Positions 5,546-27,091 of a stretch of 36,877 nt of DNA are shown here, piece after piece. Made by a program: the position numbers and the translations under genes. Each line of letters begins with the position of its first letter. Position 1 is the stretch's first letter. A model generated the notes under the pieces. It was not told where the DNA came from, ran no database searches, and saw only the letters and a program-made list of their open reading frames with translations. Source of the DNA: an uncultured Bacilli bacterium. Lineage in GTDB: Bacteria; Bacillota_I; Bacilli_A; RF39; UBA660. The stretch is taken from NCBI GenBank assembly GCA_947588865.1, contig CANPYQ010000001.1, positions 1 through 36,877 on the forward strand, given 5' to 3'.

Positions 5546-5947
5546 TTGAAAGAATCTATGTGGGGGTATGCAGTTATTACGTTAGGTATACTAGCTGTTG
5601 GTATTATTTGGTTCTTTGCAAATGTAACAAGAACAGATCAACATAATTATAATTTACTTAAAGAGACCGTTGAAGCTTCTATGTTTGATGCACTTGATTT
5701 GTCTGCTTATAGAAAAGATGGAACGGTTAAGATTATAGAAGCAAAATTTGTTGAAAATTTTATTAGAAGATTTGCGGAAAATGCTGATTTATCTAATGAT
5801 TATAAAATAGAAATATTCGATGTAAATGAAACACCACCTAAAGTAAGTTTGAGAGTTTCAAGTAGAAATTCAACGGGGGTAACAGGAGAAATGGTTGATT
5901 TTAATATAGTTAATAATATAGATGCTATATTGGAAACAAAGTATTGA
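5546..5947 (+). CDS. Pilin-like / TadE-TadG-like protein with an MKESxxG leader
   Basis: The ORF track starts at GTG 5537. I prefer TTG 5546, 5 nt after AGGTGA (5535-5540), which gives MKESMWGYAVITLGILAVGIIWFF. This parallels the leaders of the genes at 9766, 10387 and 10859. Confidence 0.7.
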   Translation: MKESMWGYAVITLGILAVGIIWFFANVTRTDQHNYNLLKETVEASMFDALDLSAYRKDGTVKIIEAKFVENFIRRFAENADLSNDYKIEIFDVNETPPKVSLRVSSRNSTGVTGEMVDFNIVNNIDAILETKY

Positions 5948-5962
5948 GAGGAGAATAAAAAG

Positions 5963-6832
5963 ATGAATAATTTTGTTATAGGTTTAAAAAGATTTTTTAC
6001 GAATAAGAATGTTGTTACTATTATATTAGTATTAGTTATTTTAGGCATTCTTTATTATGGATACAGTTCTAGTATAAAAAAGCAAACTAATCCAGTTAAT
6101 ATGCCTGTTGCAGCGCATACTATAAGTTCTAGAACACAGGTTACTGATGAAGATGTAATGTATACAACTGTTGCAAATAGTATGATAGGCGAAGGTGCTA
6201 TACGTAATTCAAATGATATAATAGGTAAATATACTAATGTTAATGTTACTATTCCAACTGGAAGTATATTTTATAGTGAATGGTTATCTGATGAGGATGA
6301 TATTCCAGGAAATTGGATTGAGCAATTAGACTATAAAAAAGGTGAATTAGGATATTATATGGATGTAAGTGTAGAAAGCACTTTAGGTAAATCAGTACTT
6401 CCAGATACATATATAGATATATTTATGAAGGCAACTGATGAAAACGGAACTGTTATGTTTGGTAAACTTATGAAAAATGTAAAAGTTTTAGTTGTACATG
6501 ATGGGGATGGTAATAATGTATTTGATAATGCAGCTGAGATAGGAACACCATCTAAGATTGGTTTTGCAGTAAGCCAGGATTATTATATATTACTTAAAAA
6601 AGCAGAATATTTGGATGTAGAACTTGTTTTAGCACCTCGTGGATCTACAATTCCAAGTCAAGATTATGTTATTGTTACAAGTTCAACATTAAGAGATTAT
6701 ATTGATGCTCAAACTATAACTGTTGAAGAAGATATTATTGCTGAAGAAATAAATGATAACGATAAAAACAATGAGAATCAAGATAATGCAGAAGGTAATA
6801 CAGATCAAAATAATCAAAATGCTACTGAGTGA
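5963..6832 (+). CDS. CpaB/RcpC-like Flp pilus assembly protein (N-terminal TM plus SAF-like domain)
   Basis: RBS GAGGAG. N-terminal TM segment VVTIILVLVILGILYY. PVAAHTISSRTQVTDEDVMYTTVANSMIGEGAIRNSNDIIGKYTNVNVTIPTGSIF follows the CpaB SAF-domain pattern. It sits directly upstream of the Tad ATPase. Confidence 0.7.
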   Translation: MNNFVIGLKRFFTNKNVVTIILVLVILGILYYGYSSSIKKQTNPVNMPVAAHTISSRTQVTDEDVMYTTVANSMIGEGAIRNSNDIIGKYTNVNVTIPTGSIFYSEWLSDEDDIPGNWIEQLDYKKGELGYYMDVSVESTLGKSVLPDTYIDIFMKATDENGTVMFGKLMKNVKVLVVHDGDGNNVFDNAAEIGTPSKIGFAVSQDYYILLKKAEYLDVELVLAPRGSTIPSQDYVIVTSSTLRDYIDAQTITVEEDIIAEEINDNDKNNENQDNAEGNTDQNNQNATE

Positions 6833-6836
6833 TTAA

Positions 6837-7961
6837 ATGCACGATAATATATTTGAAGGAATGGACTTTGGTCCGTTAAAAGAATATTTAGAAAATGATG
6901 ATATTACCGATATTTCTTATAGCAATAACGGGCAGGTTTGGTTGAAAACTTTATCAAAAGGAATTTTTAGAATTGAAAATCCAGCTATAAATAATGCATT
7001 TATGGAGAAACTTGCATTTCAATGTTCAAATGTTATGGGAAAAAGTTTTAATGCTGCACATCCTTTTTTGGATAGTGAGAGTGCAGAATTACGTATGAAT
7101 TTTGTCCATGATTCTATTGCAAAAAATGGAATCGCTTGTGTTATACGTAAAACACCGGCAAAAATTCGTTTAGAGAGAAACAAAATATTAAAAGAAAAAT
7201 ATATTACAGAAGACATATTGGACTTTTTAATAACTTGTGTACATGGACATTGTAATATAATTGTATGTGGAGAAACTGGATCTGGTAAGACAGAGTTCGT
7301 AAAATTCTTAGCTTCAAATACTTATGAAAATGAAAAATTAATAACTATAGAAGATACTTTGGAACTGCACTTGGATAGGATATATCCAAATAGAGATATT
7401 GTTGCTATGAAAACTAACAATATTGCTAGTTATTCAGATGTTCTAGTTACTTGTATGAGACAGAATCCTAAATGGATATTATTATCAGAGGTTCGTAGTG
7501 CAGAGGCTGTTATGGCTGTTAGAAACTCTATTTCTTCAGGTCACTATATATTATCAACTATACATGCTGATAAAGCAGCTTCTATTCCAAATCGTATGTA
7601 TAGTTTGCTTGAAACTAATCAAGATATTGAACAATTTTTGAAATCTATTTATAGATATATTCAAATAGGAGTATATATAAGGGGATATCAGGATAAAATT
7701 TCAAAGAGCTTTGTAAGAGAAATTGCTGAAGTTACAGAATTTTATGTAACTGAGGATAATGAAGCAAAATATAATACTTTGTATAAAAAAACTCCCGATG
7801 GAACTGTTTATAGGAAAAACCCAAGTAAATATTTAATAGAATATTTAGAGGCACAGGGAACGGTTTTACCAACAGGATTTATAAAAGAGGAATATGATAA
7901 AGATAATAAAGTTGTTGAAAAAAAATCTTTAAATGATAATAACGAAATAATTTTTGAATAG
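6837..7961 (+). CDS. CpaF/TadA-type (VirB11-superfamily) secretion ATPase
   Basis: Walker A GETGSGKT, Asp box TIEDTLEL, Walker B region RQNPKWILLSEVR, His box LSTIHA. It is followed by two TadB/C-like genes. Confidence 0.9.
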   Translation: MHDNIFEGMDFGPLKEYLENDDITDISYSNNGQVWLKTLSKGIFRIENPAINNAFMEKLAFQCSNVMGKSFNAAHPFLDSESAELRMNFVHDSIAKNGIACVIRKTPAKIRLERNKILKEKYITEDILDFLITCVHGHCNIIVCGETGSGKTEFVKFLASNTYENEKLITIEDTLELHLDRIYPNRDIVAMKTNNIASYSDVLVTCMRQNPKWILLSEVRSAEAVMAVRNSISSGHYILSTIHADKAASIPNRMYSLLETNQDIEQFLKSIYRYIQIGVYIRGYQDKISKSFVREIAEVTEFYVTEDNEAKYNTLYKKTPDGTVYRKNPSKYLIEYLEAQGTVLPTGFIKEEYDKDNKVVEKKSLNDNNEIIFE

Positions 7962-7972: not shown

Positions 7973-8875
7973 ATGAATATAACTATAATTTTTATAATTG
8001 TGTCTATACTAGCTATATTCCTAATTATATATAGGAGTAGTATTGGTGAACAAACTTATAAATATATAAGTACACAAAGTAGAAGATTATATAGTAAAGT
8101 TGCTCCTTATACATATAAAGAAATAAGAAAAAAAATAAAAGAATTAAAGCAAGATTATACAGTAACTCAGTATATTGGACAAGTAATATTATTTGCGGTA
8201 GGAGCTGGGGTCGTAACATATTTGTATTTTTACAGTTTAGTTGTATCTATAATTTATGCTGTACTTGCAGTCACAGCGGTACCATATATTAATTATTTAA
8301 GATGCAAAAGACTTTATAGCGAATTTATATTTGAACAAGTCCAAGTATATACGACAAATGTTATAATGGAGTTTGCGACAACTCAAAGTTTCGTTAAGTC
8401 ACTTGAAGGTGTGTATTCATCTGGTATATTGGAAGATCCTGTTAAACAAGACGTTAAAGCTATGATTGATATGGCATATGAGAATGGTACAATAAATCAA
8501 TCACTAGAGTATATGAACGAAAAATACGATTTTTATATGGTAAAAAATATGCATCAATTATTTTTACAAATAACTAATGAAGGATCAAAAGATGCTAGTG
8601 ATTCACTTGAAAATATGTCACTTGATATAGATATGCTTGTAGAAGCAGTTTATAGAGATAGGTTGGATAGAGAAGCCTTTTATAAAAAATTTATTAAATT
8701 TGGTTTAATATTATATTTGATGATAGGATTAGTACAAATAATGTTAGGAGACACATATCATAGTATGCTTAATTTATGGTATGTTAGACTTTTGTTACAT
8801 ATAATTGTAATTATAAATACTTATTTCTTATTATCTGGTACTAAATTTTATAATGAGAATGTGGGGGCTGAATAA
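7973..8875 (+). CDS. TadB-like (GspF/T2SSF-domain) pilus platform membrane protein
   Basis: RBS GGAGGG. The layout is N-terminal TM, central TM pair, a helical cytoplasmic domain (FEQVQVYTTNVIMEFATTQSFVKSLEGV...INQSLEYM) and C-terminal TM segments. This architecture and position are typical of TadB. Confidence 0.7.
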   Translation: MNITIIFIIVSILAIFLIIYRSSIGEQTYKYISTQSRRLYSKVAPYTYKEIRKKIKELKQDYTVTQYIGQVILFAVGAGVVTYLYFYSLVVSIIYAVLAVTAVPYINYLRCKRLYSEFIFEQVQVYTTNVIMEFATTQSFVKSLEGVYSSGILEDPVKQDVKAMIDMAYENGTINQSLEYMNEKYDFYMVKNMHQLFLQITNEGSKDASDSLENMSLDIDMLVEAVYRDRLDREAFYKKFIKFGLILYLMIGLVQIMLGDTYHSMLNLWYVRLLLHIIVIINTYFLLSGTKFYNENVGAE

Positions 8876-9666
8876 TGGAATTTTTAATAGTTACAATATT
8901 AATAATAATTATAGTTATTGTTAATAATATAGTTGATACTAGACGTTTTTTCGAACAAGTCAATCCATTCTTACAGAAATTTATGGAAAAAGACTATGAA
9001 TTCTTGCTTAGAGTAAAATATAAAGATAAGGATTTGGATGTAAATGCTCTTTTTTCAAGAAGAATAAGAGATGGTATTATAACTGCTGCAGTGTTAATAT
9101 TTCTTTTAGCGGTTACTGGGTATTTGAACTATATGTGGGCATTTGGTGCTTGCATAGGCGGATTTTTAGTATTTAAAAGTGGTTATACTAAGTTAAAAAC
9201 TTTTTATAAAGCAAGATTACATACAATGGATTCTATGCTTCCATATTATTTAAAGAGTTTGGAAATTTTAGTACAGCATTATACAGTTCCAGTTGCTCTA
9301 TCAAGAAGTATAGATACTGCTCCAGAGATATTTAGACCTGGACTTAGGAAATTAGTTGCTAGAATAGATGAAGGTGATGCATCTATTCAACCATATATTG
9401 ATTTTGCAAATGAATATCCAGTTAGGGATTCTATGCGTATGATGAGACTTTTATATCGTTTAGGATTAGGCTCAAATCAAGACAAACACGAGCAGATAAT
9501 GATGTTTTCAAAGACTGTATCATCACTTCAAAATAAAGCCCGTGAACAAAAATATAAAGACCGTTTAGAGTCTATGGAAAAAAGAACCATGATAATGTTG
9601 TTCGTAACAGGTGGTGGCGTTTTACTAGTTTTATTTATGTCAATGTCTGTTATGATGGGAATATAA
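8875..9666 (+). CDS. TadC-like (GspF/T2SSF-domain) pilus platform membrane protein
   Basis: TAATG stop/start overlap with the previous gene. The topology is the same TM / cytoplasmic helical domain / TM layout (LPYYLKSLEILVQHYTVPVALSRSI...PGLRKLVARIDEG). Confidence 0.7.
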   Translation: MEFLIVTILIIIIVIVNNIVDTRRFFEQVNPFLQKFMEKDYEFLLRVKYKDKDLDVNALFSRRIRDGIITAAVLIFLLAVTGYLNYMWAFGACIGGFLVFKSGYTKLKTFYKARLHTMDSMLPYYLKSLEILVQHYTVPVALSRSIDTAPEIFRPGLRKLVARIDEGDASIQPYIDFANEYPVRDSMRMMRLLYRLGLGSNQDKHEQIMMFSKTVSSLQNKAREQKYKDRLESMEKRTMIMLFVTGGGVLLVLFMSMSVMMGI

Positions 9667-9765: not shown

Positions 9766-10032
9766 ATGAAAGAAGCAGCAGGAGAAGCAAATATGACAGT
9801 AATAACAATAGTTTTAATAGCTATAGTACTTGCAATCGGAACAATTATAGTAACTAATATGATGAACAATACTGGAAAAAATTCTGCTTGTTCAAGTGCA
9901 GGTGGTGTATGGAATAGTGGTAAATGTTATGCAGCAAGTTCATGTAAATACGATAATGGAAAAACTACGTGCTCAGGAACTACTTTAAGTTGTAAGGAAT
10001 CTGGTAATGATTGGATATGTGAATCAAAATAA
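9766..10032 (+). CDS. Small pilin-like protein (candidate major Flp-like subunit) with a Cys-rich head
   Basis: RBS AGGTGAGG. MKEAAG leader, hydrophobic helix EANMTVITIVLIAIVLAIGTIIV, then about 50 aa containing 6 Cys. The gene has its own promoter and terminator. Confidence 0.75.
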   Translation: MKEAAGEANMTVITIVLIAIVLAIGTIIVTNMMNNTGKNSACSSAGGVWNSGKCYAASSCKYDNGKTTCSGTTLSCKESGNDWICESK

Positions 10033-10050
10033 ATTTTTATTAAAAATTCG

Positions 10051-10073
10051 AGAGGGTATTTACCTTCTTTTTT
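10051..10073 (+). terminator. Rho-independent terminator after the pilin gene
   Basis: agagggt (10051-10057) pairs with accttct (10062-10068), including one G-U pair, around a 4-nt loop. A T5 run follows (10069-10073). Confidence 0.5.
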
Positions 10074-10320
10074 GTGCCGTAAATACGAATTTTATTACTA
10101 TTAAAGTTTTTTAACTGAAAAAAATTTTTATGTGAACCCCAAGTAGAAGACATTATGGCACTCTTAGGCTATTACTTAAAAGCCCATACTGTAATATAAA
10201 TTGAATCGTCGTAGGTGGCGTGAGAGGTATAAATATAAAATAGAAAGCTTTATTTAATTTTCTCTACTCGTTTATTAACACTAATTTGAATAAAAAATTT
10301 AAACGATTGACATAATATCA

Positions 10321-10350
10321 TTGACAAAACTTCTTTACAACTGTTATAAT
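10321..10350 (+). promoter_or_regulatory. Near-consensus sigma-A promoter for the minor-pilin / tadZ / VirB2-like operon
   Basis: TTGACA (10321-10326), 18-nt spacer, TATAAT (10345-10350). A second TTGACA lies at 10307-10312. Confidence 0.6.
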
Positions 10351-10386: not shown

Positions 10387-10839
10387 GTGAAAGAAAGCGT
10401 AGGTTATACAGTTACATTAAATATTGCGATAATGTTTATTATAATAGTTTTTGCTTTCCTTGCTGCAGCTCTTATATATTATAAAAGTAATAAAGTTAAT
10501 AATGTAATAATTAATTCACTAGAAAAGTATGAAGGATTTAATGATTTAGCTATTAATGAAATAAATAATAGTATGACAACTTTAGGCTATAATAGACATT
10601 CAATTAATTGTGGTGATAATATCAGTGATGATGGAAATGCATGTACATTAGTAGGTGACGGAGATAGTAAAGATAATGGTTATTGTGTTTATGTTTGTGT
10701 AGAAGAAAATAAGGATTACTATTATTTTAGGGTAAAGTCTTATATGATGATCAATGTACCTATTATAAATGAAATTTTAAATATTCCAATATTTTCAAAT
10801 TCAAATAGATTATATGATTTTGGCGATAGTTTTAAATGA
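10387..10839 (+). CDS. Minor pilin-like (TadE/TadF-like) protein, paralog 1
   Basis: GTG start after AGAGGT. MKESVG leader plus hydrophobic helix. It shares CVY, YYYF/YK-VK-[ST]-Y and PII-[NG]-E-[IL] motifs with the next gene. 4 Cys. Confidence 0.75.
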   Translation: MKESVGYTVTLNIAIMFIIIVFAFLAAALIYYKSNKVNNVIINSLEKYEGFNDLAINEINNSMTTLGYNRHSINCGDNISDDGNACTLVGDGDSKDNGYCVYVCVEENKDYYYFRVKSYMMINVPIINEILNIPIFSNSNRLYDFGDSFK

Positions 10840-10858
10840 TATTTAGGGATGTGATACT

Positions 10859-11290
10859 GTGAGAGAGGCAATAGGGAGTAGTTTATTACTTAGTGTGGTT
10901 GTTGTTTTTGTAGGACTAATAATATTATTTTTTGTAAATATATTATCTTATTCTAAAGCTTATAAAGCTAAGAATAGAATAATAGAAATTATTGAAAAAT
11001 ATGAGACATATTCAGAATCAAATTCAGAATCCAGTGAGTTAAATGAAATAAAGCAATCTTTACAAGATATGGGTTATCAGACGGGTGAATGTAAAAATGA
11101 GGATTCTAAAGATAATATAGCAAATAGTGGATATAAATATTGCGTTTATAGAATTGATGAAGAAGGCGGAACATATTATTATAAAGTAAAAACTTATGTT
11201 CAGTTCTATTTTCCAATAATAGGTGAACTCTTTAATCCACCGGTACAAAGTGAAACTAAAATATTAGGGAAAAGCTATGATTATGATTGA
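10859..11290 (+). CDS. Minor pilin-like (TadE/TadF-like) protein, paralog 2
   Basis: GTG start. MREAIG leader plus hydrophobic helix. Clear paralog of 10387-10839 (GYKYCVYRIDEEGGTYYYKVKTYVQFYFPIIGELFNPP). 2 Cys. Confidence 0.75.
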   Translation: MREAIGSSLLLSVVVVFVGLIILFFVNILSYSKAYKAKNRIIEIIEKYETYSESNSESSELNEIKQSLQDMGYQTGECKNEDSKDNIANSGYKYCVYRIDEEGGTYYYKVKTYVQFYFPIIGELFNPPVQSETKILGKSYDYD

Positions 11291-20055: not shown

Positions 20056-22062
20056 ATGAATAATAATACAGATATATTTGAAAAAGATAGTAAAGAAAAT
20101 TATATAAAAAATTTAAATGCCTCAAATGAGGCAAAAAGGCTTGAGAACAAAATAAAAGTTTATAGAAGTAATTTAAATAATAATAGTTATAATAATAGTC
20201 ATAGTAATAATAGTTATATTAATAATAATTCAAAAAATAAAAATAGCATGTTAAAAATAAGTACGACAAAACAGAAACCATCAAGTACTAATAATAGTAA
20301 GCTAACTAATAAAATCGCAAAAACTGGTCTTCAAGCTGCAGGAGTTCCAAAACCTCTTGCAGATACAGCAGTTAATAGTGAAATAGGTCAAAAAACTATA
20401 TCTAGATTAAAAAAGAAAAATTTTGCACTTAATATGTTTGATAGATTAACACAAGGTAGTGATATCAAGAAAAAAGAAGATTTAGAATCTAATGGTGGTA
20501 ATACTAGTTTTTCATTTTCAAGAAAAGAAAAAAGAAGTATTGGAATAGCTTCATTAGTTTTTATTGGTGTAATCTTTGTTTTCTGTGGCTTATTTATTAC
20601 GTCATCAACTGTCTATTTAAATGCTGTTGGATTCGGTAGTGCGGATTCGCTTAAAGGAAAAGATGTAGAAGATAAAATAAATAAAAAATCAGATAATGTA
20701 GATGAGGATATAGCTAATCAAGATGCTGTTGCTTTTGATATTTTTATAGATAATTCAGACAGTTTGAAATTTTCAAAATCAAAGTTAGATAGTTCTAATC
20801 TAATAAAAACAAAAAAAGTAACTGAAGATGTTCAAGATGATAATAATTTATATTATATTGAAAAAGATTATGGAGCGGATATACTTGATAATTTAGAGGA
20901 CTTTTATCCATCTATAAATGATGATAGTAAAAATTATAATGAAAGAATGGTATATGATTTTTATTATAAAATGTATAAGATTTATATTACATATAGAGAT
21001 TACTATGGTGTCTATTTAGATTTGCCACTTTTAATGTCGACGCTTACTATACAATCTAGTGATATGAATGTCGTTTTTGAATCCAATTTAAGTTCTGAAG
21101 ATAAAGGTAATGATATAGACCCTAATGAATATTCTTTTTGTAAAAATTGGAGTTCTTATTCCACAAATAGAGATGATAGTTCACATGACATGGAAGTTTT
21201 AGCTCAACATATGGTATCACAACAAGTTGAAGAATATTGTAAAGATTCTTCGGGTAATAAAACAAAAAGCAATATTTTAAAAGATAATGAAATAGGTACA
21301 CAAACCTTAACTTGTGATGAAGGTCAAACATATGGAACAAGTGATGTTACATTAGAATTTGATAGGGAAAAGTATACGGAATTTTTAAGAGAATTTTTAG
21401 AAAAAAAATATTACATAGATGAAAATCTTACGTTGTCAAGCGTTGATATACATTATGATTGTAGTAAAAAAGTTAACAATAATACAAGTAGCGAAAATAA
21501 TGATAATTCAATAAGTAATTCGACATCAGATATTGTTAATCCATTTGCTAAAGCTATGATTGAGCTTGCAAATAAAGAGTATGCTGAAAATCAGGGATAT
21601 AATGACGGAATTAAATATACAAATGCAATGGGATATGCTCCTGGGACTCCTTGGTGTGCTATGTTTGTATGGTGGCTAGGACTCAATACTTCAGTAGATG
21701 GTAAGACTTTAGTTGATGATATAGTACCTTTCGGATCGGCTGGAACAGGAACATATATAAGACTCTTTAATAATAGTACTAAAGAAAATATAAATTTTTA
21801 TTATAATGATAATTGTAGTCGTTTAGCTGGAAAAAATAATAGTAATAATAAATATGTACCTAAGCCAGGGGATTATATATTCTTTGATTGGGAGGCAAAT
21901 TACTATGATATTTCTTCAGATACTCAAGATCACACTGCTTTAGTAGAAAAGTATGAGAATGGTACTATATATACTATAGAAGGAAATTCTAGCGATACAA
22001 TAAGAAAAAAAAGCTATGATATTAATGACTGTCGAGTTATAGGATTTGGCTCTTGGTATTAG
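20056..22062 (+). CDS. T4SS-associated cell-wall hydrolase with a C-terminal CHAP domain
   Basis: RBS AGGAGG. An Asn-rich N-terminus, one TM segment (IASLVFIGVIFVFCGLFI), and a C-terminal CHAP domain with GTPWCAMFVWW (Cys nucleophile) and DHTALVEKYENGTIYTIEGN. Confidence 0.85.
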   Translation: MNNNTDIFEKDSKENYIKNLNASNEAKRLENKIKVYRSNLNNNSYNNSHSNNSYINNNSKNKNSMLKISTTKQKPSSTNNSKLTNKIAKTGLQAAGVPKPLADTAVNSEIGQKTISRLKKKNFALNMFDRLTQGSDIKKKEDLESNGGNTSFSFSRKEKRSIGIASLVFIGVIFVFCGLFITSSTVYLNAVGFGSADSLKGKDVEDKINKKSDNVDEDIANQDAVAFDIFIDNSDSLKFSKSKLDSSNLIKTKKVTEDVQDDNNLYYIEKDYGADILDNLEDFYPSINDDSKNYNERMVYDFYYKMYKIYITYRDYYGVYLDLPLLMSTLTIQSSDMNVVFESNLSSEDKGNDIDPNEYSFCKNWSSYSTNRDDSSHDMEVLAQHMVSQQVEEYCKDSSGNKTKSNILKDNEIGTQTLTCDEGQTYGTSDVTLEFDREKYTEFLREFLEKKYYIDENLTLSSVDIHYDCSKKVNNNTSSENNDNSISNSTSDIVNPFAKAMIELANKEYAENQGYNDGIKYTNAMGYAPGTPWCAMFVWWLGLNTSVDGKTLVDDIVPFGSAGTGTYIRLFNNSTKENINFYYNDNCSRLAGKNNSNNKYVPKPGDYIFFDWEANYYDISSDTQDHTALVEKYENGTIYTIEGNSSDTIRKKSYDINDCRVIGFGSWY

Positions 22063-22070
22063 GAGGTAAT

Positions 22071-22727
22071 ATGAAAAAATTATTAATATTTTTGTTAATA
22101 GTATTTTTGCTAAGTGGTTGTACATCTAATTACAATTTGGAAATAAGTAATAATAGTTTTAAAGAAAATATCAATGCAACTATTAATAAAAATGAAATAC
22201 CTACATCTTCTCCGTACCCTGAAATAGAGCTAGATGATCAAATAACTCCGTTTTTAAATAAAGACTATTCTGCAATTTTTTCAGATGATAAAGCTCTATA
22301 TAAAAAAAGAGTTACTTATTTAGATAATTATATAAATGTAGATATGAGTTACAAATATAATGAACAAGAATTTTATAATTCAAATTCTTTAAAATTATGT
22401 TTTGATAATTATGAATTTTCATACGAAGATGATTATTATATACATGCTTATGGTAGATTTTATTGCTTGTATAGTGATTCTTTAGATATAAACATTAAGA
22501 CAAATAATAAAGTTTTATCACATAATGCCGATGAGGTAAATGGTAACACATATACTTGGCATGTTAATAAAGACAATTTAGATAATTTAGATATAAATAT
22601 AAAAGTAGATAAAGGTATTAATAAAGAAACGATAACAACTATAATAATAGTAATATTTATAATAATTATACTTTCAATAGTCGGTTTAGTTGTATATAAA
22701 AAGGGTTCAAAAGAAAATAAAATATAG
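22071..22727 (+). CDS. Lipoprotein with an additional C-terminal TM anchor
   Basis: The ORF track starts at 22053. I prefer ATG 22071 after GGAGG. Lipobox LLSGC. C-terminal ITTIIIVIFIIIILSIVGLVVYKKG. Confidence 0.75.
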   Translation: MKKLLIFLLIVFLLSGCTSNYNLEISNNSFKENINATINKNEIPTSSPYPEIELDDQITPFLNKDYSAIFSDDKALYKKRVTYLDNYINVDMSYKYNEQEFYNSNSLKLCFDNYEFSYEDDYYIHAYGRFYCLYSDSLDINIKTNNKVLSHNADEVNGNTYTWHVNKDNLDNLDINIKVDKGINKETITTIIIVIFIIIILSIVGLVVYKKGSKENKI

Positions 22728-22741
22728 TTTGAGGTGGGATT

Positions 22742-24001
22742 GTGTTCAAAAAATTTATAAAATTTAATATACTTACTGTAGCTTTATTTTATTTTTTATT
22801 TTATAATAATGTAAGAGCTTACGAATATATAGATTCAAAAAATGAATCACAGATTAATGATATGATAGTTGAAATATTTGATGCAAAGGAACAATATGAA
22901 GATTTAGCGGGAGATGATATTAAAAGTGAATTAGCTGTAGTGCATGAGGCTACTTCAAATTCATATTGGTGGCCAATAGGTAGTGAAGAAACCATAGAAG
23001 TAAATGGAATTATTTATGCAAAAGGGGATCCATTAGTTACCGGTATAACATCTAATTTTGGATATAGAGAGGACCCATTTAATAGAGGTAAAAAATTGCA
23101 CTCAGGGATAGATATATCAGATGCTAATTCTTCTAATAATGTAAATATAATTGCATCTAAATCTGGAGTAGTTGTATATCCAACTGCTGATGTTCAGAAT
23201 AATTGTCCATCTAGTAGTTCTTTATCCAACTGTGGTGGTGGATATGGAAATTATGTTGTAATACAACATAGTGATGGTAATTATACTTTGTATGGACATA
23301 TGTATGAAGGCTCTATAACGGTTAAAGCTGGAGATTCTGTTGAGCAAGGACAAGTTATAGGTAAAATGGGTAGTAGTGGAAATTCCACAGGTAATCATCT
23401 TCACTTTGAAGTACGAGAAGGTCAGAATGCATATTCTGCGACTGTAGATCCATTAAATTATGTATCGGCGGACACTCCAAGAATGATATTTAGTGGTAGC
23501 GGAAAAATTTATGATTTTATAAACAGTTATGAAGGGAATACTGGTATAGTTGGTGATAGTTATAAAATTATAAATATTGGAGATGGTATGAGGAGTGTAG
23601 GCCATGGAGTTACTTTAGAAAATTGTTGGCAGTATTTTCAAAAATATGGATATGAAGTAAGAAATTTATCTGTTGGTGATACACTTCCAATTTCAATAGT
23701 TGATCAAGTTGAATTAGATATAATTGACTATAACAGAAATTATATTGAAAATACGATTTCTGATAATTCTATAAAACTTGAAATTTATCAAATAGATGCA
23801 TTAATTTCACAAATGTATAATATGGGTAATATTTCTGGATTTGTAAATGCTTATAAAAAATATGGAAATACACAAGAATTTTTTGAAAATTGGTTTTTCA
23901 GAGGTACTAGCCCTGGTTCTGGGTTTGAAGCTGGATTATCTAAAAGAAGAAAGGCAGAATGGACTTTGTTTCATACAGGCGAATATGTATATGCTAGTTA
24001 G
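22742..24001 (+). CDS. Bifunctional peptidoglycan hydrolase: M23 metallopeptidase plus GH24-type lysozyme-like domain
   Basis: GTG start after GAGGTGG. N-terminal signal/TM segment. M23 motifs HSGIDIS and GNHLHFEV. The C-terminal FINSYEGNTG...IGDGMRSVGHGVT...QIDALISQMYNMG follows the phage-lysozyme (GH24) pattern. Confidence 0.85.
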   Translation: MFKKFIKFNILTVALFYFLFYNNVRAYEYIDSKNESQINDMIVEIFDAKEQYEDLAGDDIKSELAVVHEATSNSYWWPIGSEETIEVNGIIYAKGDPLVTGITSNFGYREDPFNRGKKLHSGIDISDANSSNNVNIIASKSGVVVYPTADVQNNCPSSSSLSNCGGGYGNYVVIQHSDGNYTLYGHMYEGSITVKAGDSVEQGQVIGKMGSSGNSTGNHLHFEVREGQNAYSATVDPLNYVSADTPRMIFSGSGKIYDFINSYEGNTGIVGDSYKIINIGDGMRSVGHGVTLENCWQYFQKYGYEVRNLSVGDTLPISIVDQVELDIIDYNRNYIENTISDNSIKLEIYQIDALISQMYNMGNISGFVNAYKKYGNTQEFFENWFFRGTSPGSGFEAGLSKRRKAEWTLFHTGEYVYAS

Positions 24002-24009
24002 GAGAATTT

Positions 24010-24525
24010 ATGAAAGATAAATCTAAATTAATAGCTATTATTTTGGCTGTTATTGCAGTAATTATTTTAATAGTTTCGAATGTAGTGAATAATAAAAATG
24101 AAGATAAAAAAAGTATAAATATAGTAACAAATTATAGTAATTTTTATACTGTTAATTCTTGTTTATATAGATTTATTACGTATTTATCTTCAAATGATAA
24201 ACAAAGTTTGTTGCTCGTTTTAGATGAAAATTATAAAAAGAAAAATAAAGTGAATGAAAATAATGTTATAGAAATAATCGGTTCTGTGGATGCTGATTCA
24301 ACTTTTGTGTCACAAAAAATGTATTATGAAAGGTTAAACAAAAATATTACTAAATATTATGTCTATGGTAATATAGAAAAAAATCAGATGGATGAAGATG
24401 GAACAATTGATTCTGAGTCTTCTAATGAAAAATATTTTATCGTTTATTTAGATTCTACCAATAAGACTTTTTCAGTTGAGCCATATTCAGGTGAAATATT
24501 CAATGGTGGTGAATATGATGAATAG
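24010..24525 (+). CDS. N-terminally anchored small protein, candidate VirB8/TcpC-like (NTF2-like) T4SS component
   Basis: RBS AGGAG. One N-terminal TM segment and a ~140-aa ectodomain. The size, topology and position between the hydrolases and VirD4 fit VirB8-like proteins. No diagnostic motif was seen. Confidence 0.45.
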   Translation: MKDKSKLIAIILAVIAVIILIVSNVVNNKNEDKKSINIVTNYSNFYTVNSCLYRFITYLSSNDKQSLLLVLDENYKKKNKVNENNVIEIIGSVDADSTFVSQKMYYERLNKNITKYYVYGNIEKNQMDEDGTIDSESSNEKYFIVYLDSTNKTFSVEPYSGEIFNGGEYDE

Positions 24526-24988
24526 TAAATCTATTAAAAGTGTAGTTATTATTGCTATAATCGTAGTAATATTTGGTTTAGTTTACTTTTTATTTAAAAC
24601 AATTTTCGGTAATAATTCCGATAATTATAATCAATATCTTAAAGACTATAAAGTTAATGAATATATTCCAACTTATGTATCTGATGAGTCAATGGTAAAA
24701 ATATATTTAAATGATTATGTATATAATATGTATTATGATATTGATAAAGCTTATAATTCTTTAGATGAAAATTATAGAAATGAAAAATTTGGAAATAAAG
24801 AGAATTATATTAATTATGTAAATTCTCTAAATTATAGTACATATAATCTCACAAGATATTATAAACAAGAAAAAGATGGGTATATAATATTTGGAGCATA
24901 TGATCAGAATAATAATTTATACATATTTAAAACTAAAGGGGTTATGCAATATGTGGTATTTTTAGATGATTATACAGTAGAAATTTAG
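24515..24988 (+). CDS. N-terminally anchored small protein, second candidate VirB8-like component
   Basis: The ORF track starts at 24476. I prefer ATG 24515 or 24518 after GGTGGTGA. It overlaps the previous stop by 11 nt and has the same TM-plus-ectodomain layout. Confidence 0.45.
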   Translation: MMNSKSIKSVVIIAIIVVIFGLVYFLFKTIFGNNSDNYNQYLKDYKVNEYIPTYVSDESMVKIYLNDYVYNMYYDIDKAYNSLDENYRNEKFGNKENYINYVNSLNYSTYNLTRYYKQEKDGYIIFGAYDQNNNLYIFKTKGVMQYVVFLDDYTVEI

Positions 24989-24997
24989 GTGATTATC

Positions 24998-27091
24998 ATG
25001 AAATTAAGATTTAGAGCTGATTCTAGGGATATGTTAATATTTTGTATATTTGCATTTGTTTGGTTAATTGTTGTTGCATTTGCAGTGTCAAATGTTTCAC
25101 AATTTTTAAATGGGGAGTCTTTAACAATTAATTTATTTTTGGCATTTTTACCTAGGAATTTGGCTACAACTATAGTATTCTTTTTTGCAGGTTTAGTAGC
25201 TATTTTTGCTGGAGTTAAGTCCATCTTTTTGGAAAAAGAAGATGATGCAACTGGAATAGGTATATCTATAGGGCAAAAGAAGGAAAAAAATTATGCTAGA
25301 TGGGCAAAAGAAAAAGAAGTACAAAATGGATTAGATGTAAAAGCTGTAGATCCACTTGCTCCAAAATCAGATGCTGCAGGTATTCCACTAATTATGAATC
25401 CAAAAAAGGTATGGGTTGACAATGGTGGGTATCATAATCTAGTTATAGGATCTACAGGTGCAGGTAAAACTCAAACAACTGTTTTGCCAATGGTTAATTT
25501 ACTTGCCAAGCATGATGAGTCTATGATAATAACAGACCCTAAAGGTGAAATATATGAAAACACTTCTAATTATTTAAAAAGTTTAGGATATAATATAGTT
25601 TTATTAAATTTTCGTGATCCACAACAAGGTAATGCCTGGAATCCAATGTATTTACCTTATTCGTTATATAAAGATGGAAATATAGACAAATCTGTTGAGT
25701 TGCTTGAAGATCTTGCTGCAAATATCCTTCATGATCCTAGTGCTAAAGGACAAGATCCATTCTGGGAAAATACTTCCGCGGATTATTTTGCAGGACTTGC
25801 ATGTGCACTTTTTGAGGATGCTGATCCGTCAGAGATAAATTTAAATAGTATTAGTTTAATGACTACTGTTGGTGAAGAAAAATTAGCAAATACTACATAT
25901 GTAAAAGATTATTTCAGTTATAAAGATCCAGGAGGAACTGCATATACAAAAGCATCTTCTACTTTAATGGCTCCGAGTGAAACAAAAGGTAGTATTTTAT
26001 CTGTATTTAAACAAAAAATACAATTATTTGCATCACGTGCTAATCTTTCTGAAATGTTATCTAATAATGATTTTGATATGCGTGATATAGGGAGAAAAAA
26101 AACAGCTGTATTTATCGTTATACAAGATGAAAAAACTACATATCATTCTTTGGTAACTATATTTTTAAAACAGTGCTATGAAACATTGATTTCAGTAGCG
26201 CAAGAATCAGGTGGAAAACTACCTCATAGGACAAACTTTATATTGGATGAGTTTGCCAATATGCCTCCTTTGAAGGACGTTACAACAATGGTAACAGCTG
26301 CTCGTTCAAGAAATATAAGATTTACCTTTATAATACAAAACTTTGCTCAACTTTATGAAGTATATGGGAAAGAAAATGGTGAAACTATTAAGGGTAACTG
26401 TGGTAATATTGTTTATCTGATAAGTACAGAACTTTCAGCACTTGAAGAAATTAGTAAGATGTGTGGAGAAGTTAAATCAAAAGAAAAAGAGAAGACATCA
26501 TCAACACCACTTGTTACAGTAAGTGATTTACAAAGATTAAGTCAGTGGGAAACAATTATTTTAAGACTTAGAACAATGCCTTTTAAAACTAAATTAACTC
26601 CAAATTATCAAATGAATTGGGGCCACAGTTTTCCTAAGGCAACATATCCATTAAGAGAAAAATGTCCAGTAAAAACATTTGACATAAAAGCTTTTGTTAA
26701 TAAAAAAAGAGAAGAAAAGATTAATAATATGCTAGGTGGAGAACCTAAAAATGGTTTTGAAAATATGTCAATGCCTTTCGCACCAGCTCCTTCATTTAAT
26801 CCATTTCAAGATATGCAAAAATCTTCTAATGTAGGGGGATTTAATGTTGACGATTTAGTTAAAAGAATAGATGCTAAAATAGCCGAATTAGAGGAAGAAG
26901 AAAGACAAGAAAAGGCTAAATCAGAATCAAATCAAAATACTTCTGTTAAAGACGCTAAAATTGAACAGAATATAAGTAGTAGTAACGATACAAACAAAAT
27001 TGATGAAAATAAAAAATATGAACAAGAAAAAATTGATAAAAATGGAATTACAGATGATCAGTTCTTTGATGACTTTTTTGCAGATGAATAA
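24998..27091 (+). CDS. VirD4/TraG-family type IV coupling protein
   Basis: The ORF track starts at GTG 24989. I prefer ATG 24998, 5 nt after AGGTGA. Two N-terminal TM segments, Walker A GSTGAGKTQT, Walker B NFILDEFANM, RSRNIRFTFIIQNFAQL, and an acidic C-terminal tail. Confidence 0.9.
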   Translation: MKLRFRADSRDMLIFCIFAFVWLIVVAFAVSNVSQFLNGESLTINLFLAFLPRNLATTIVFFFAGLVAIFAGVKSIFLEKEDDATGIGISIGQKKEKNYARWAKEKEVQNGLDVKAVDPLAPKSDAAGIPLIMNPKKVWVDNGGYHNLVIGSTGAGKTQTTVLPMVNLLAKHDESMIITDPKGEIYENTSNYLKSLGYNIVLLNFRDPQQGNAWNPMYLPYSLYKDGNIDKSVELLEDLAANILHDPSAKGQDPFWENTSADYFAGLACALFEDADPSEINLNSISLMTTVGEEKLANTTYVKDYFSYKDPGGTAYTKASSTLMAPSETKGSILSVFKQKIQLFASRANLSEMLSNNDFDMRDIGRKKTAVFIVIQDEKTTYHSLVTIFLKQCYETLISVAQESGGKLPHRTNFILDEFANMPPLKDVTTMVTAARSRNIRFTFIIQNFAQLYEVYGKENGETIKGNCGNIVYLISTELSALEEISKMCGEVKSKEKEKTSSTPLVTVSDLQRLSQWETIILRLRTMPFKTKLTPNYQMNWGHSFPKATYPLREKCPVKTFDIKAFVNKKREEKINNMLGGEPKNGFENMSMPFAPAPSFNPFQDMQKSSNVGGFNVDDLVKRIDAKIAELEEEERQEKAKSESNQNTSVKDAKIEQNISSSNDTNKIDENKKYEQEKIDKNGITDDQFFDDFFADE

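Follow-up and report, generated by a model that had tools for sequence, protein, structure and literature searches.

A chromosomal, relaxase-less relative of the pLS20-type conjugation machine in uncultured gut Bacilli, with a module that looks like a type-IV-filament engine

The transfer regions of three plasmids, pLS20, pLM6179 of Listeria and pZB18 of E. faecium, contain a sub-module homologous to part of the locus studied here: two polytopic proteins, an ATPase labelled 'CpaF/VirB11' and a protein of DUF5411 type. In pLS20 this sub-module was catalogued as genes 36-39, with gene 37 annotated as VirB11 and no pilus homologs reported, and the table of genes 34-54 agrees with the order of our locus (PMC8557374). 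The plasmid catalogues name the ATPase VirB11 and its neighbours 'unknown', pLS20-type systems are said to lack pilus components (PMC8557374, PMC11730352), and there is no report of a filament made by pLS20. DUF5411 proteins were also found with CpaF and PilC/GspF in T4SS-free operons of Clostridia (PMC9523054), and a TadC-TadB fusion was described in TANB77 (PMC11680825).

The window analysed here is an entire MAG contig of 36,877 bp, with a uniform GC content of ~27% over the locus and its flanks. A sequence-only reading had described a co-oriented cluster with mostly tiny gaps, and all large ORFs from 430 to 36719 indeed lie on the + strand, most of them separated by very short gaps. In the co-oriented block (~430/5546-27091), a secretion-ATPase module comes first and a Gram-positive T4SS after it. 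The same reading held that conjugative modules do not normally include Tad pili. For this T4SS family the three plasmids contradict this, and the architecture was already catalogued for pLS20 genes 36-39, though as VirB11 with 'unknown' neighbours. The gene order of the locus agrees with pLS20, pLM6179 and pZB18; by gene content, homologies and order, the locus is related to the pLS20-type conjugation machines of Gram-positive bacteria but has no relaxase gene.

Colinear counterparts of g04 to g27 occur in no fewer than 21 further species (GTDB species representatives; uncultured gut Bacilli). The left flank is scpB/scpA in four distinct relatives, on contigs of up to 332 kb, and the right flank is rhodanese/RmuC in five relatives. 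Among close relatives, the core proteins (ATPase 86-96%, VirB4 90-95% and VirD4 83-90% identical) are conserved equally to or above the flanking housekeeping genes (rhodanese 75-82%, RmuC 85-89%), and the identity of surface components goes down to 27-73%. This shared gene order, with housekeeping genes on either side, indicates vertical inheritance rather than a truncated ICE. As judged from these genomes, the block is one conserved chromosomal locus, vertically inherited in a clade of uncultured low-GC gut Bacilli.

The ATPase and platform-like module is encoded by five genes:

5537..5947, + strand: g04, DUF5411 protein (Pfam DUF5411, E 6e-50) with a pilin-like N-terminus (N-terminal motif)
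5963..6832, + strand: g05, CpaB-like protein with an N-terminal TM and a SAF-type domain (TIGR03177)
6837..7961, + strand: g06, secretion/pilus ATPase of the FlaI/CpaF/VirB11 group (Pfam T2SSE, E 2e-26)
7973..8875, + strand: g07, platform-like polytopic membrane protein whose cytoplasmic domain resembles GspF/EpsF (AlphaFold model)
8875..9666, + strand: g08, second platform-like membrane protein, partner of g07 (g07/g08 fusions)

The true start of g04 is likely the TTG at 5546, yielding MKESMWG, and the protein is a homolog of pLS20 gene 36 (hmmsearch 8.6e-6, hhalign 89.9%). The earlier naming of g05 as CpaB-like has indirect support: TIGR03177 pilus_cpaB was matched by 13 of 13 orthologs (best E 1.6e-10), all under the curated cutoff, and the FlgA C-terminal domain by 12 of the 13, again all under cutoff. 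All four ATPase boxes that had been claimed for g06 are readable in its translation (Walker A GETGSGKT, Asp box ITIEDTLEL, Walker B WILLSEVR, His box STIHAD). It is a T2SSE ATPase, but a specific CpaF identity is not supported: the NCBIfam and PDB comparisons ended in ties, with FlaI, CpaF and VirB11 scores of 66, 63.5 and 61 bits. The protein is 78-96% identical across species and 29-32% identical to the plasmid ATPases (E about 1e-44; for pLS20 gene 37, about 1e-45). Its closest annotated ATPases are 'CpaF/VirB11 family' proteins of Gram-positive plasmids, and its pLS20 ortholog, gene 37, is labelled 'putative VirB11' with the RefSeq gene name tadA.

When the AlphaFold model of g07 (pLDDT 84.8) was searched with Foldseek, the EpsF cytoplasmic domain was the only good PDB match, with 2vmb_B at the top (prob 0.99, target-normalised TM 0.71, rmsd 2.9, E-value 1.1). 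Pfam T2SSF did not match g07, g08 or 22 distant g07 homologs, and hhalign of the g07 family reached 15% probability with genuine TadB and gave nothing with TadC. Similarity to the plasmid counterparts was strong for g07 (hhalign 94-97.6%; pLS20 gene 38, 97.6%, E 4e-12), and g08 is probably a homolog of pLS20 gene 39 (gene-39 family: hmmsearch 2.3e-4, hhalign 33-50%). The stop of g07 and the start of g08 overlap by 1 nt in nearly all species, and in the distant relatives P0351, P0367, P0379 and P0380 g08 is fused with a g07-family domain (E 5e-15 to 5e-7), resembling the TadC-TadB fusion of TANB77. The TadB- and TadC-like character proposed for g07 and g08 has indirect support from the EpsF-like model of g07 and from the fusion, but not from a T2SSF sequence match.

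The N-termini of four proteins, g04, g09, g10 and g11, have in common M[KR]E[SA]xG and a hydrophobic helix. The region from g09 to g12 is as follows:

9766..10032, + strand: g09, 88 aa, putative major pilin-like subunit (N-terminus and gene context)
10050..10350, + strand: g09-g10 spacer; at 10050-10069 a terminator-like hairpin with a T-run, and at 10321-10350 a perfect sigma-70-type promoter (consensus scans only)
10387..11290, + strand: g10 and g11, two minor pilin-like proteins (shared N-terminal motif)
11287..12309, + strand: g12, conserved 340-aa cytoplasmic protein (35-80% identical, 25 loci)

In g09, which is set apart by gaps and has the terminator-like hairpin at its 3' side, the ~29 N-terminal residues are nearly invariant in 21 species and the C-terminus is variable and Cys-rich. 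No Rfam family matched the g09-g10 spacer. The best plasmid matches of g10 and g11 are the gene-40 equivalents, and these are weak (E 0.004-0.015, hhalign 6-9%). The four proteins matched no pilin family in Pfam or NCBIfam and have neither the Flp G/XXXXEY nor the type IV pilin E5 signature. An assignment to Flp pilins is not supported; the pilin-like reading of the four proteins has indirect support from their shared motif and helix. For g12, once read as TadZ-like, searches of Pfam, NCBIfam and PDB returned nothing and hhalign to MinD and CpaE was likewise empty, and this identity is not supported.

Given the GspF/EpsF-like fold of g07, the g07-g08 fusion and the four pilin-like N-termini, the module looks like a type-IV-filament engine integrated in this T4SS family. 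Alternatively, g06 could be an ordinary VirB11-type T4SS motor, with g04, g07, g08 and g09-g11 as family-specific T4SS membrane components and no fibre. The best NCBIfam score of g06 (115.6 bits) belongs to the VirB11 model, pLS20 gene 37 is annotated accordingly without pilus homologs (PMC8557374), T2SSF, Flp and A24 sequence matches are all absent, and the Foldseek E-value of g07 against EpsF is non-significant. A VirB11 motor without fibre is also the current reading of pLS20 genes 36-41. We nevertheless consider this explanation improbable. The EpsF cytoplasmic domain is the sole good structural match of g07, and we know of no VirB11 protein that operates with a GspF-fold platform; the first membrane protein next to the ATPase is therefore not simply an unrelated one. 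Moreover, g06 scores equally to CpaF, FlaI and VirB11, the module includes a CpaB-like protein, some relatives carry a g07-g08 fusion comparable to TadC-TadB of TANB77, four proteins share a pilin-style N-terminus, and DUF5411 accompanies CpaF and PilC in operons free of T4SS (PMC9523054).

The T4SS half comprises g13-g27 and the outlying g32:

12318..13612, + strand: g13, g14 and g15, three VirB2-like (T4SS_pilin) paralogs (weak PF18895 matches)
13629..14741, + strand: g16, 370 aa, membrane-anchored, Cys-rich extracellular protein of the T4SS half (conserved in all loci)
14762..15185, + strand: perfect promoter-like site (14762-14790) and g17, VirB2-like (consensus scan; conservation)
15276..17393, + strand: g18, VirB6-like channel protein that ends in a long coiled coil (Pfam TrbL_4, 35 bits, cutoff 27)
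17414..20035, + strand: g19, VirB3/PrgI-like; g20, VirB4 N-terminal domain; g21, VirB4 ATPase (NF045975)
20056..24001, + strand: g22, CHAP hydrolase; g23, lipoprotein; g24, M23 peptidase; VirB1-type wall-opening enzymes (domain matches)
24010..24988, + strand: g25 and g26, paralogous 170-aa membrane-anchored proteins (hhalign g25 vs g26, 92.6%)
24989..27091, + strand: g27, VirD4 coupling protein of the CD1115 family (NF045973, 294.5 bits vs cutoff 250)
30319..31419, + strand: g32, outlying 366-aa protein in which a Cys-rich extracellular domain precedes a C-terminal T4SS_pilin domain (PF18895, 27.3 bits; cutoff 26.6)

The VirB2-like array that had been proposed at the junction does lie there, and T4SS_pilin was the top Pfam family in 18 of 37 VirB2-like paralog or ortholog members, with g32 passing the threshold. 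In L009, a g32 homolog (31% identical) lies immediately upstream of VirB6. Against the pLS20 gene-45 family g15 gave hhalign 31% (E 5e-4); g17, the best-conserved VirB2-like protein, is the candidate main T4SS pilin. The earlier VirB6 and VirD4 calls were confirmed above the Pfam and NCBIfam cutoffs, respectively, and were extended by matches of g18 to a pLS20_p028-family protein (hhalign 95.8%) and of g27 to Pfam T4SS-DNA_transf (E 8e-57) and pLS20 VirD4 (E 7.5e-58). The CHAP domain of g22 and the M23 domain of g24 (E 3e-25) were found as predicted, whereas the GH24/lysozyme match on g24 was sub-threshold (possible domain). The VirB8 identity suggested for g25 and g26 is not supported, as they resemble VirB8 in size and position only and showed no link to it by profile or hhalign. 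No family or PDB match was found for g16. For g09-g12, g16, g20, g25 and g26, hhalign demonstrated no counterpart on the plasmids.

VirB3-like and VirB4 proteins are both present as had been read, with VirB4 split over g20 and g21 and g19 in the same profile: g19, g20 and g21 cover positions 3-77, 105-276 and 295-893 of the 894-position NF045975 profile. Among plasmid proteins, g19 matched pZB18 DUF5592 (E 4.6e-5) and g21 matched pLS20 VirB4 (E 1e-35). This split, together with the lack of relaxase and integrase and with IS copies at both window ends, would suit a decaying or IS-truncated conjugative element that recently lost its relaxase module, as the sequence-only reading had entertained. 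The left copy is:

1..364, - strand: terminal piece of an IS copy, with the 5' part of its transposase gene cut off by the contig edge; outside the system

The two ends form an inverted repeat of 130 nt (235-364 vs 36748-36877, 98% complementary). Since the window is a whole MAG contig, however, the IS copies at its ends are assembly break points rather than flanking elements. No gene is disrupted, the relaxase is missing in all 27 of 27 loci, and the relaxase-less block keeps the same order in at least 21 species between scpAB and rhodanese/RmuC. The offsets and frames of g19/g20/g21 are identical in all relatives, and pLS20 also has three genes there, comparable in size (103, 192 and 633 aa). 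The ATPases are 83-96% identical across close relatives, indicating strong purifying selection. We regard decay as highly improbable.

Another explanation is that two independent machines are mere neighbours here, one an adhesion pilus of Tad-like type and the other a T4SS. L026 and L027 carry the T4SS half (g16 included) without the ATPase module, showing that the two parts are separable; Clostridia have DUF5411/CpaF/PilC operons without T4SS (PMC9523054), and internal promoters are predicted. On the other hand, pairing and order are unchanged in 21 species, and the pairing also occurs on Bacillus, Listeria and Enterococcus plasmids. Wherever both genes were called, the gaps at the g11-g12-g13 junction measure -8 to +33 nt, the sole exception being L007 (80 nt), and nearly all species lack a terminator there. 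The sole terminator-like site is 3' of g09 and perfect promoters lie 5' of g10 and g17 (consensus matches only), so that the predicted middle operon covers both 'halves'. Two independent machines are thus very unlikely in our view.

No relaxase, recombinase or A24 peptidase domain was found in any scanned ORF of the window, in agreement with the sequence-only reading, and tblastn found no homologs of the pLS20 MobL, primase, SSB or integrase. The substrate would most likely be DNA, moved via a relaxase encoded elsewhere or by a relaxase-independent route such as mycoplasma chromosomal transfer. Instead of conjugative DNA export, the same apparatus could serve protein or toxin delivery to neighbouring bacteria or host cells, or DNA uptake or release. 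It is fixed in the chromosome without a relaxase, its surface parts evolve fast, and it has several VirB2-like paralogs and an adhesin. Diderm T4SSs that have VirD4 but no relaxase typically translocate effectors, and DNA uptake is carried out by Tad or T4SS-related machines in Micrococcus, Helicobacter (ComB) and archaea (Ced). We think such a role possible but doubtful: effector, toxin-immunity and competence genes were not recognised in the locus or flanks, we know of no well-established monoderm effector T4SS, and VirD4 is highly conserved here, unlike in the ComB and Ced importers, which to our knowledge have no VirD4-type coupling protein. A non-conjugative chromosomal T4SS and a composite apparatus with a fibre for contact, both raised earlier, are each compatible with the findings.

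Upstream of the ATPase module lie:

430..3171, + strand: g01, 913-aa secreted surface protein, candidate adhesin (signal-peptide-like N-terminus)
3240..5478, + strand: g02 (521 aa, polytopic N-terminus) and g03 (221 aa), both conserved membrane proteins

A Pfam SpaA domain occurs at the position orthologous to g01 in L004 and L034. The genes g02 and g03 matched no family; in L001-L004, L033 and L034 they come immediately 3' of either the adhesin gene or scpA.

On balance, we consider it rather probable that the locus is a chromosomal, relaxase-less relative of the pLS20-type machine with a type-IV-filament engine built in. We infer that the ATPase g06 would act on a two-part platform, g07 and g08, and push pilin-like subunits, presumably after cleavage, out of the membrane to build up a pseudopilus or short fibre, with g09 as the major and g04, g10 and g11 as minor subunits and CpaB-like g05 as an envelope component. 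The CHAP and M23 hydrolases would open the cell wall, and VirD4 would feed a cytoplasmic substrate into a membrane channel of VirB6, VirB3, split VirB4 and VirB2-like proteins. Coupled to this channel, the fibre and the g01 adhesin may bring the cell into contact with a neighbour or serve as a way towards it.

pLS20 and pZB18 also have thioester or SpaA adhesins upstream of the ATPase module, and g01 is the positional analogue of pLS20 Tie and of the pZB18 SpaA-type protein, although no sequence homology to these adhesins was demonstrated (E 0.2). Since homologous genes sit inside plasmid conjugation operons, the 'Tad half' does not count as a foreign insert; by these homologies, it is the lineage's enlarged version of a sub-module already present in pLS20-family transfer operons, which there also includes small proteins with a hydrophobic N-terminus. 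What is new relative to the plasmid descriptions is the GspF/EpsF-like cytoplasmic fold of g07, the g07-g08 fusion in relatives and the pilin-like N-terminus on four proteins. The whole pLS20-type Gram-positive family may therefore make a pilus-like fibre, against the textbook view.

The 36.9-kb window has a GC content of ~27% throughout, and every large ORF lies on the + strand. The ORFs were numbered g01 to g37 in order, and the features assigned to them in and around the secretion cluster (g04-g27) are as follows.

Features of the secretion cluster
5537-5947, + strand, g04: DUF5411 (domain scan, E 6e-50)
6837-7961, + strand, g06: T2SSE ATPase, four nucleotide-binding boxes all readable in the translation
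15276-17393, + strand, g18: TrbL_4 (VirB6-like), above the Pfam cutoff
17414-20035, + strand, g19, g20 and g21: jointly span one VirB4 profile of 894 positions (NF045975)
20056-22062, + strand, g22: CHAP hydrolase
22742-24001, + strand, g24: M23 peptidase with a weak lysozyme match
24989-27091, + strand, g27: CD1115-family VirD4, 294.5 bits against a cutoff of 250 (NCBIfam)
g13, g14, g15, g17 and g32: VirB2-like paralogs

T4SS_pilin was the leading Pfam family of the VirB2-like set, matching 18 of 37 paralog and ortholog members, with g32 above threshold. This last protein (30319-31419, 366 aa) carries a Cys-rich extracellular domain and a C-terminal T4SS_pilin domain; it lies 3 kb past VirD4 among housekeeping genes, and a 31%-identical homolog sits just upstream of VirB6 in one relative (L009). 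Domain scans identified the downstream genes as housekeeping, including rhodanese, RmuC, RNase R, two PGA_cap proteins, SmpB and SpoVG. The start of g31 (29305-30297) resembles a J-domain (YYELLGL...) without the HPD motif, and the protein had no Pfam match. The proteins g25 and g26 (24010-24988) are paralogous (hhalign 92.6%), and their ORFs as listed have 50 nt in common. A weak PDB match to the N-terminal region of TarM (E 0.0025) was obtained with the g25 profile, and PDB sequence-profile searches returned nothing useful for g07, g08, g12, g16 or g25.

The sequence-only reading had described the cluster as lacking a relaxase, a recombinase and an A24 peptidase, and domain scans agreed, since the scanned ORFs of the window contained none of these domains. 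A hidden prepilin peptidase was considered for g30 (DUF2238) and ruled out by its domain match and by inspecting its sequence for motifs. Scanning the window revealed neither an Rfam family nor a tRNA.

That reading had also listed truncation or rearrangement by the flanking insertion sequences (IS) as one of three options. A protein with 100% identity to g07 is on record on an NCBI contig of exactly 36,877 bp, so the window is a whole MAG contig, and both of its ends lie inside inverted copies of one IS (1-364 and 36748-36877; 130 nt, 98% complementary), so these copies are uninformative on truncation of the cluster. Their transposase genes point outwards, and the IS is presumably multi-copy in this genome. 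A composite transposon bounded by the two copies was likewise ruled out, because the copies mark the contig ends and relatives have housekeeping flanks.

Close metagenomic relatives of the ATPase number in the thousands, and the best 120 of them were 82-96% identical, came from gut samples and in some cases bore the name 'MAG: Bacilli bacterium'. Searching GTDB species representatives with the VirB6-like protein gave 23 loci, 21 of them in 'uncultured Bacilli/Tenericutes' MAGs from human, rabbit, deer and other guts. As mapped by tblastn and ORF calling, the order g04-g27 was identical in all 21 loci. The left flank was scpB/scpA in four distinct relatives (contigs of 65-332 kb), and the right flank was rhodanese/RmuC in every locus extending that far, so that the position is fixed between scpAB and rhodanese/RmuC and does not vary as in a plasmid or ICE. 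In close relatives the ATPase was 86-96%, the VirB4 ATPase domain 90-95% and VirD4 83-90% identical, and the flanking rhodanese and RmuC were 75-82% and 85-89% identical; the pilin-like proteins, VirB2-like proteins and hydrolases were just 27-73% identical. Such a pattern is that of a machine passed on vertically and kept under strong purifying selection, the surface parts of which evolve fast, and not that of a mobile element. A tblastn search of the window and 27 related loci (564 kb) with MobL, the TOPRIM primase, SSB and the integrase of plasmid pLS20 gave no homolog (best E 0.03), and the locus thus differs from an element carrying its own MobL/MOBP2 relaxase and DNA-processing genes. 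RNase R lies left of scpB in locus L034 (1-1890) and right of the cluster in the window (31398-33608), implying that the surroundings of the locus have been rearranged in one genome or the other. Left of scpB in L002 (1-4700) is a separate mobile-element fragment with PcfJ, PcfK and DnaB-like genes, unrelated to the locus.

The first half of the cluster had been read as a set of Tad pilus genes. In NCBIfam, g06 scored 115.6 bits with VirB11, 91.9 with the TadA-type TIGR03819, 90.3 with TrbB and 81 with FlaI, all far below the cutoffs, and in PDB profiles 65.8 bits with FlaI, 63.5 with CpaF and 61 with VirB11. Judged by these scores, no assignment of the ATPase to the CpaF clade over VirB11 or FlaI appears possible. 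For g05, 13 of 13 orthologs matched the CpaB model TIGR03177 (best E 1.6e-10), all below the curated cutoff of 71 bits. Alignment of g05 with a single CpaB sequence (hhalign) was negative despite these matches, indicating that single-sequence targets are insensitive.

The two membrane proteins g07 and g08 had no T2SSF match (PF00482) in Pfam. An exhaustive search gave 217 g07 homologs, and T2SSF was absent from all 22 distant ones scanned by Pfam. The structure of g07 was modeled; a shallow alignment gave an unusable model (pLDDT 53.7) and a deeper one a pLDDT of 84.8 and a pTM of 0.74. The sole good PDB match of the latter (Foldseek) was the cytoplasmic domain of EpsF/GspF, with a probability of 0.99, a target-normalised TM of 0.71 and an rmsd of 2.9 Å over all 115 target residues, at a non-significant E of 1.1; the other matches were poor superpositions. 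The g07 family aligned in register with genuine TadB over 174 columns, weakly (hhalign E 0.0017, probability 15%), and reached 0.1% with TadC. Shallow hhalign found no relation between g07 and g08, and fusion proteins are the only link between them: four distant relatives of 490-720 aa (P0351, P0367, P0379 and P0380) join a g07-like N-terminal half to a C-terminal half matching the g08 profile (E 5e-15 to 5e-7). Some of these fusions carry long lysine/glutamate-rich N-terminal extensions. Together, the predicted fold of g07, the fusions and the weak TadB alignment point to a platform role for g07 and g08.

Four small proteins, g04, g09, g10 and g11, have the motif M[KR]E[SA]xG in common, with a hydrophobic helix of ~20 residues after it, in at least 20 species. 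In g09 the first ~29 residues are almost invariant and the C-terminus is Cys-rich and variable, a conservation pattern that resembles the behaviour of a pilin. Neither the Flp signature G/XXXXEY nor the E5 signature of type IV pilins is present in the four proteins, which have no E-Y at +5/+6 and matched no Flp or pilin family in Pfam or NCBIfam. A TadV/CpaA-type A24 prepilin peptidase was not found in the scanned ORFs of the window. The assignment of g12 as TadZ-like received no support of any kind: it had no match in Pfam, NCBIfam or PDB profiles, hhalign against MinD (an approximate query sequence) and Paracoccus CpaE was negative, and Pfam found nothing relevant in its orthologs. DUF5411, the family of g04, has been described next to CpaF and PilC/GspF in gut Clostridia (PMC9523054). 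We conclude that the first half is a divergent type-IV-filament-style module and not a canonical member of the Tad family.

The nearest annotated relatives of g06 are 'CpaF/VirB11 family' proteins on Gram-positive plasmids of Virgibacillus, Enterococcus, Listeria and Bacillus (120-154 bits), among them pLS20-like plasmids and a 94.8-kb B. anthracis plasmid; genuine CpaF scored 89 bits and proteobacterial VirB11 68-93 bits. Three plasmids were compared with the locus: Listeria pLM6179, E. faecium pZB18 and B. subtilis pLS20, all typed as conjugative with a MOBP relaxase. Their gene order, listed below, is that of the gene 34-54 table of the pLS20-family paper (PMC8557374).

Gene order in the conjugative plasmids
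1: thioester or SpaA-type adhesin, annotated in pLS20 and pZB18
2: small protein with an N-terminal TM helix
3: ATPase, called tadA in the RefSeq record of pLS20
4: two polytopic proteins of ~235-276 aa
5: ~120-aa protein, likewise with an N-terminal TM helix
6: hydrophobic protein of 47-80 aa
7: VirB2-like protein, annotated TrbC/VirB2 in pZB18 only
8: CD1115-family VirD4
9: pLS20_p028 VirB6-like protein
10: DUF5592
11: ~200-aa protein
12: VirB4
13: wall hydrolase, seen in pZB18

In addition, pLS20 gene 54 is VirB1 (PMC8557374). The families of the locus were compared with those of the plasmids by profile methods, and the best plasmid match of each family was always the gene at the equivalent position.

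Matches between locus and plasmid genes
g04 and gene 36: hmmsearch 8.6e-6, hhalign 89.9%
g06 and gene 37: ~1e-45
g07 family and gene 38 family: hhalign 97.6%, E 4e-12, 217 columns
g08 and gene 39 family: weaker, hmmsearch 2.3e-4, hhalign 33-50% (mismatched control 0.8%)
g15 and gene 45 family: hhalign 31%
g18 and VirB6-like protein: hhalign 95.8%
g19 and DUF5592: 4.6e-5
g21 and VirB4: 1e-35
g27 and VirD4: 7.5e-58

At the level of sequence profiles, homology to plasmid genes was demonstrated for g04, g06, g07, g18, g21 and g27, and is probable for g08, g15 and g19; profile tests gave no link to plasmid genes for g09-g12, g16, g20, g25 or g26. The locus shares with pLS20-type (MPF-FATA) systems a single cluster of VirB4, CD1115-family VirD4, a VirB6-like protein and a wall hydrolase, and it has the gene 36-39 sub-module upstream of the channel genes. 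The plasmid gene order and these homologies argue that the combination of ATPase and membrane proteins with a T4SS is native to a known family of conjugation systems, so the pairing of Tad-type genes with a T4SS loses the surprise first attached to it. The architecture had in fact already been catalogued for pLS20-type plasmids, but with gene 37, the ATPase, as 'putative VirB11' and genes 36 and 38-41 as 'unknown' (Val-Calvo et al. 2021, PMC8557374); according to that paper, the family encodes no pilus components. A CPBP/CAAX-type intramembrane protease is encoded in the Listeria (L028, 21784-22434) and Enterococcus (L029, 9662-10108) transfer regions; it may offer another way of processing the small hydrophobic proteins, and no counterpart was seen in the window.

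In the region 17414-20035, the VirB3-like protein, the VirB4 N-terminal domain and the VirB4 ATPase are encoded by three separate overlapping genes. All relatives had identical offsets (238 and 599 nt) and frames for g19, g20 and g21, and at the same position pLS20 carries three genes of similar size (103, 192 and 633 aa; L031, 22205-25005); the split into three ORFs therefore characterises the family and does not reflect decay. A VirB4 pseudogene created by frameshift was ruled out by the same two observations. The true start of g20 is probably ~20 codons downstream of the listed ORF start.

Whether the two halves form one unit was approached from both transcription signals and gene content. 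The sole terminator-like hairpin found by consensus scanning lies 3' of g09, perfect sigma-70-type promoters (consensus matches only) lie 5' of g10 and g17, and the intergenic gaps from g10 to g16 are tiny in nearly all species. A middle operon is therefore predicted that extends from the minor pilin-like genes past the supposed junction and takes in the VirB2-like genes. Both g09 and g17 stand alone with a gap on either side, an arrangement to be expected of major subunits made in large amounts. Within the g09-g10 spacer (10033-10386, 354 nt) are the terminator-like hairpin, a patch of relatively high GC content (~10130-10230) and a perfect promoter of the extended -10 type; the spacer had no Rfam match. 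Across species it is between 0 and 1.7 kb long, and L018 and L020 have additional genes inserted there. Elsewhere the halves occur singly. In two 'Eubacteriales' MAGs (L026 and L027) the T4SS half directly follows tgt and ftsW/rodA (8400-17550), its VirB4 68% and its VirD4 51-54% identical to those of the window, with nothing like the first half within 10 kb and no relaxase in the stretch. This chromosomal-looking set comprises a g16-like gene, one VirB2-like gene, VirB6, VirB3, a split VirB4 and VirD4. Conversely, DUF5411/CpaF/PilC operons exist without a T4SS (PMC9523054). The two modules are thus separable in evolution.

Beyond the observed parts list, homologies, synteny, chromosomal fixation and lack of a relaxase in cis, a mechanism can be proposed. 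The g06 ATPase, on a g07/g08 platform, would assemble g09 (with g04, g10 and g11) into a short fibre or pseudopilus, and the CpaB-like g05 would serve as an envelope component. The CHAP and M23 enzymes would open the wall, the channel would consist of VirB6, VirB3, the split VirB4 and the VirB2-like proteins, and VirD4 would recruit a cytoplasmic substrate. The fibre and the g01 adhesin might provide contact or a path through the wall, a role that we would liken, by analogy, to that of the IncI type IV thin pilus. As the substrate we lean towards DNA, moved with a relaxase acting in trans or by relaxase-independent transfer. Transfer of the latter kind has been described for mycoplasmas. Effector delivery and DNA uptake are serious alternatives for the job of the apparatus. 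A joint reading can be put forward tentatively, although as a whole we think it somewhat doubtful: machines of the pLS20 family may build a Tad-like type-IV filament, as a fibre or pseudopilus, that belongs integrally to their T4SS, using the ATPase that has been called VirB11, a GspF-like platform in two parts, and small pilin-like subunits, DUF5411 among them; in a clade of uncultured gut Bacilli with reduced genomes such a composite machine may have been domesticated, fixed in the chromosome with loss of the relaxase, and given a core cell-to-cell function such as chromosomal DNA exchange or macromolecule acquisition or delivery.

Gram-positive conjugation systems are said to lack a pilus (PMC8557374, PMC11730352), and the locus bears on how partners are found and the thick wall is crossed in such conjugation. 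The architecture as such is on record for pLS20-type plasmids and so is not new in a categorical sense. Three things appear new: a complete, relaxase-less and chromosomally fixed version that is conserved across a clade of uncultured gut Bacilli and has been enlarged by a CpaB-like gene, additional pilin-like genes and several VirB2-like ones; evidence for the 'VirB11 plus unknowns' sub-module being a type-IV-filament-like engine; and a concrete, testable route to the question of a fibre in Gram-positive conjugation. No paper stating the engine interpretation was found in a literature search of incomplete coverage, and nothing relevant was found on RF39 with T4SS or on Tad-like genes with Gram-positive conjugation. 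If the pLS20 'VirB11' and genes 36-41 form a filament engine, the question of partner finding and wall crossing becomes directly testable in the genetically tractable B. subtilis. A complete relaxase-less T4SS with its coupling protein, inherited vertically under strong purifying selection in many abundant uncultured gut species, would be a rare monoderm case of T4SS domestication, and could point to how reduced-genome gut bacteria interact with their neighbours. The locus also gives a working context for thousands of 'hypothetical' metagenomic proteins (the g07 and g08 families, DUF5411 and g09-g12).

Among known systems, the T4SS of Mycoplasma/Spiroplasma ICEs provides the best NCBIfam models for the VirB4 (Mbov_0397, 343.5 bits) and VirB6-like (MMCAP2_0566) proteins and is likewise of the monoderm MPF-FATA type; Spiroplasma and Mycoplasmatota plasmids were among the best tblastn matches. 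The VirB4 score falls short of the NF045975 equivalog cutoff of 590, and VirB3 and VirB4, fused in that 894-position model, are split into three genes in the locus. Judged by names alone, the NCBIfam models of the mollicute family include no ATPase/platform sub-module. The T4SS of pUC11B belongs to a different family, without a g06-type ATPase.

The IncI type IV thin pilus (R64) is needed for mating in liquid (PMC4027160), and the accessory type IVb pilus of IncI2 (TP114) is reported to act in mating-pair formation in the gut (PMC9045228); pLS20 itself mates best in liquid (PMC11730352), and its efficient mating there is unusual. As in the reading proposed for the locus, IncI and IncI2 encode a type-IV-filament machine alongside a T4SS, a functional analogy. 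They differ in their diderm hosts, MPF-I T4SS, class IVb pilus with its own peptidase and separate pilus operon, and share no homology with the locus beyond the ATPase superfamily.

With Tad/Flp systems (type IVc; Paracoccus plasmid L032 and Caulobacter Cpa) the locus has in common the ATPase superfamily, a CpaB-like protein, a consecutive pair of platform-like membrane proteins that resemble TadB/TadC in size and topology, and several small proteins in which a hydrophobic helix follows a short charged leader. Unlike them, it has no Flp-family pilin, TadV/CpaA peptidase, recognisable TadZ/CpaE or T2SSF sequence signature, and the scores of its ATPase do not single out the CpaF clade. The locus also resembles divergent Tad-like clusters of uncultured or commensal gut Firmicutes. 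The TANB77 clade has a fused TadC-TadB protein recognised by structure only (PMC11680825), just as the platform-like proteins of the locus are recognisable only by structure and g07-g08 fusions occur in relatives; Roseburia, Ruminococcus and Eubacterium operons likewise combine DUF5411 with an ATPase (CpaF) and a platform (PilC) (PMC9523054). Unannotatable pilin-like proteins and a gut habitat are common to these clusters and the locus (PMC11680825, PMC9523054), but they were described without a T4SS, whereas the module here is embedded in one.

Compared with the pLS20 family, the locus is chromosomal and at a fixed site in at least 21 species, lacks relaxase, primase, SSB, oriT-processing and regulatory (Rco/Rap/Phr) genes, and has VirD4 at the end of the cluster instead of before VirB6. 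It additionally carries the CpaB-like g05, g02/g03, g12, g16 and at least five VirB2-like paralogs, and sequence identity is only 20-32%. The order is nevertheless the same in both: an adhesin, a DUF5411-like protein, the ATPase, two polytopic proteins (~240-300 aa), small proteins with a hydrophobic N-terminus, VirB2-like, VirB6 and VirB3-like proteins with three genes at the VirB3/VirB4 position, a wall hydrolase and a CD1115-family VirD4.
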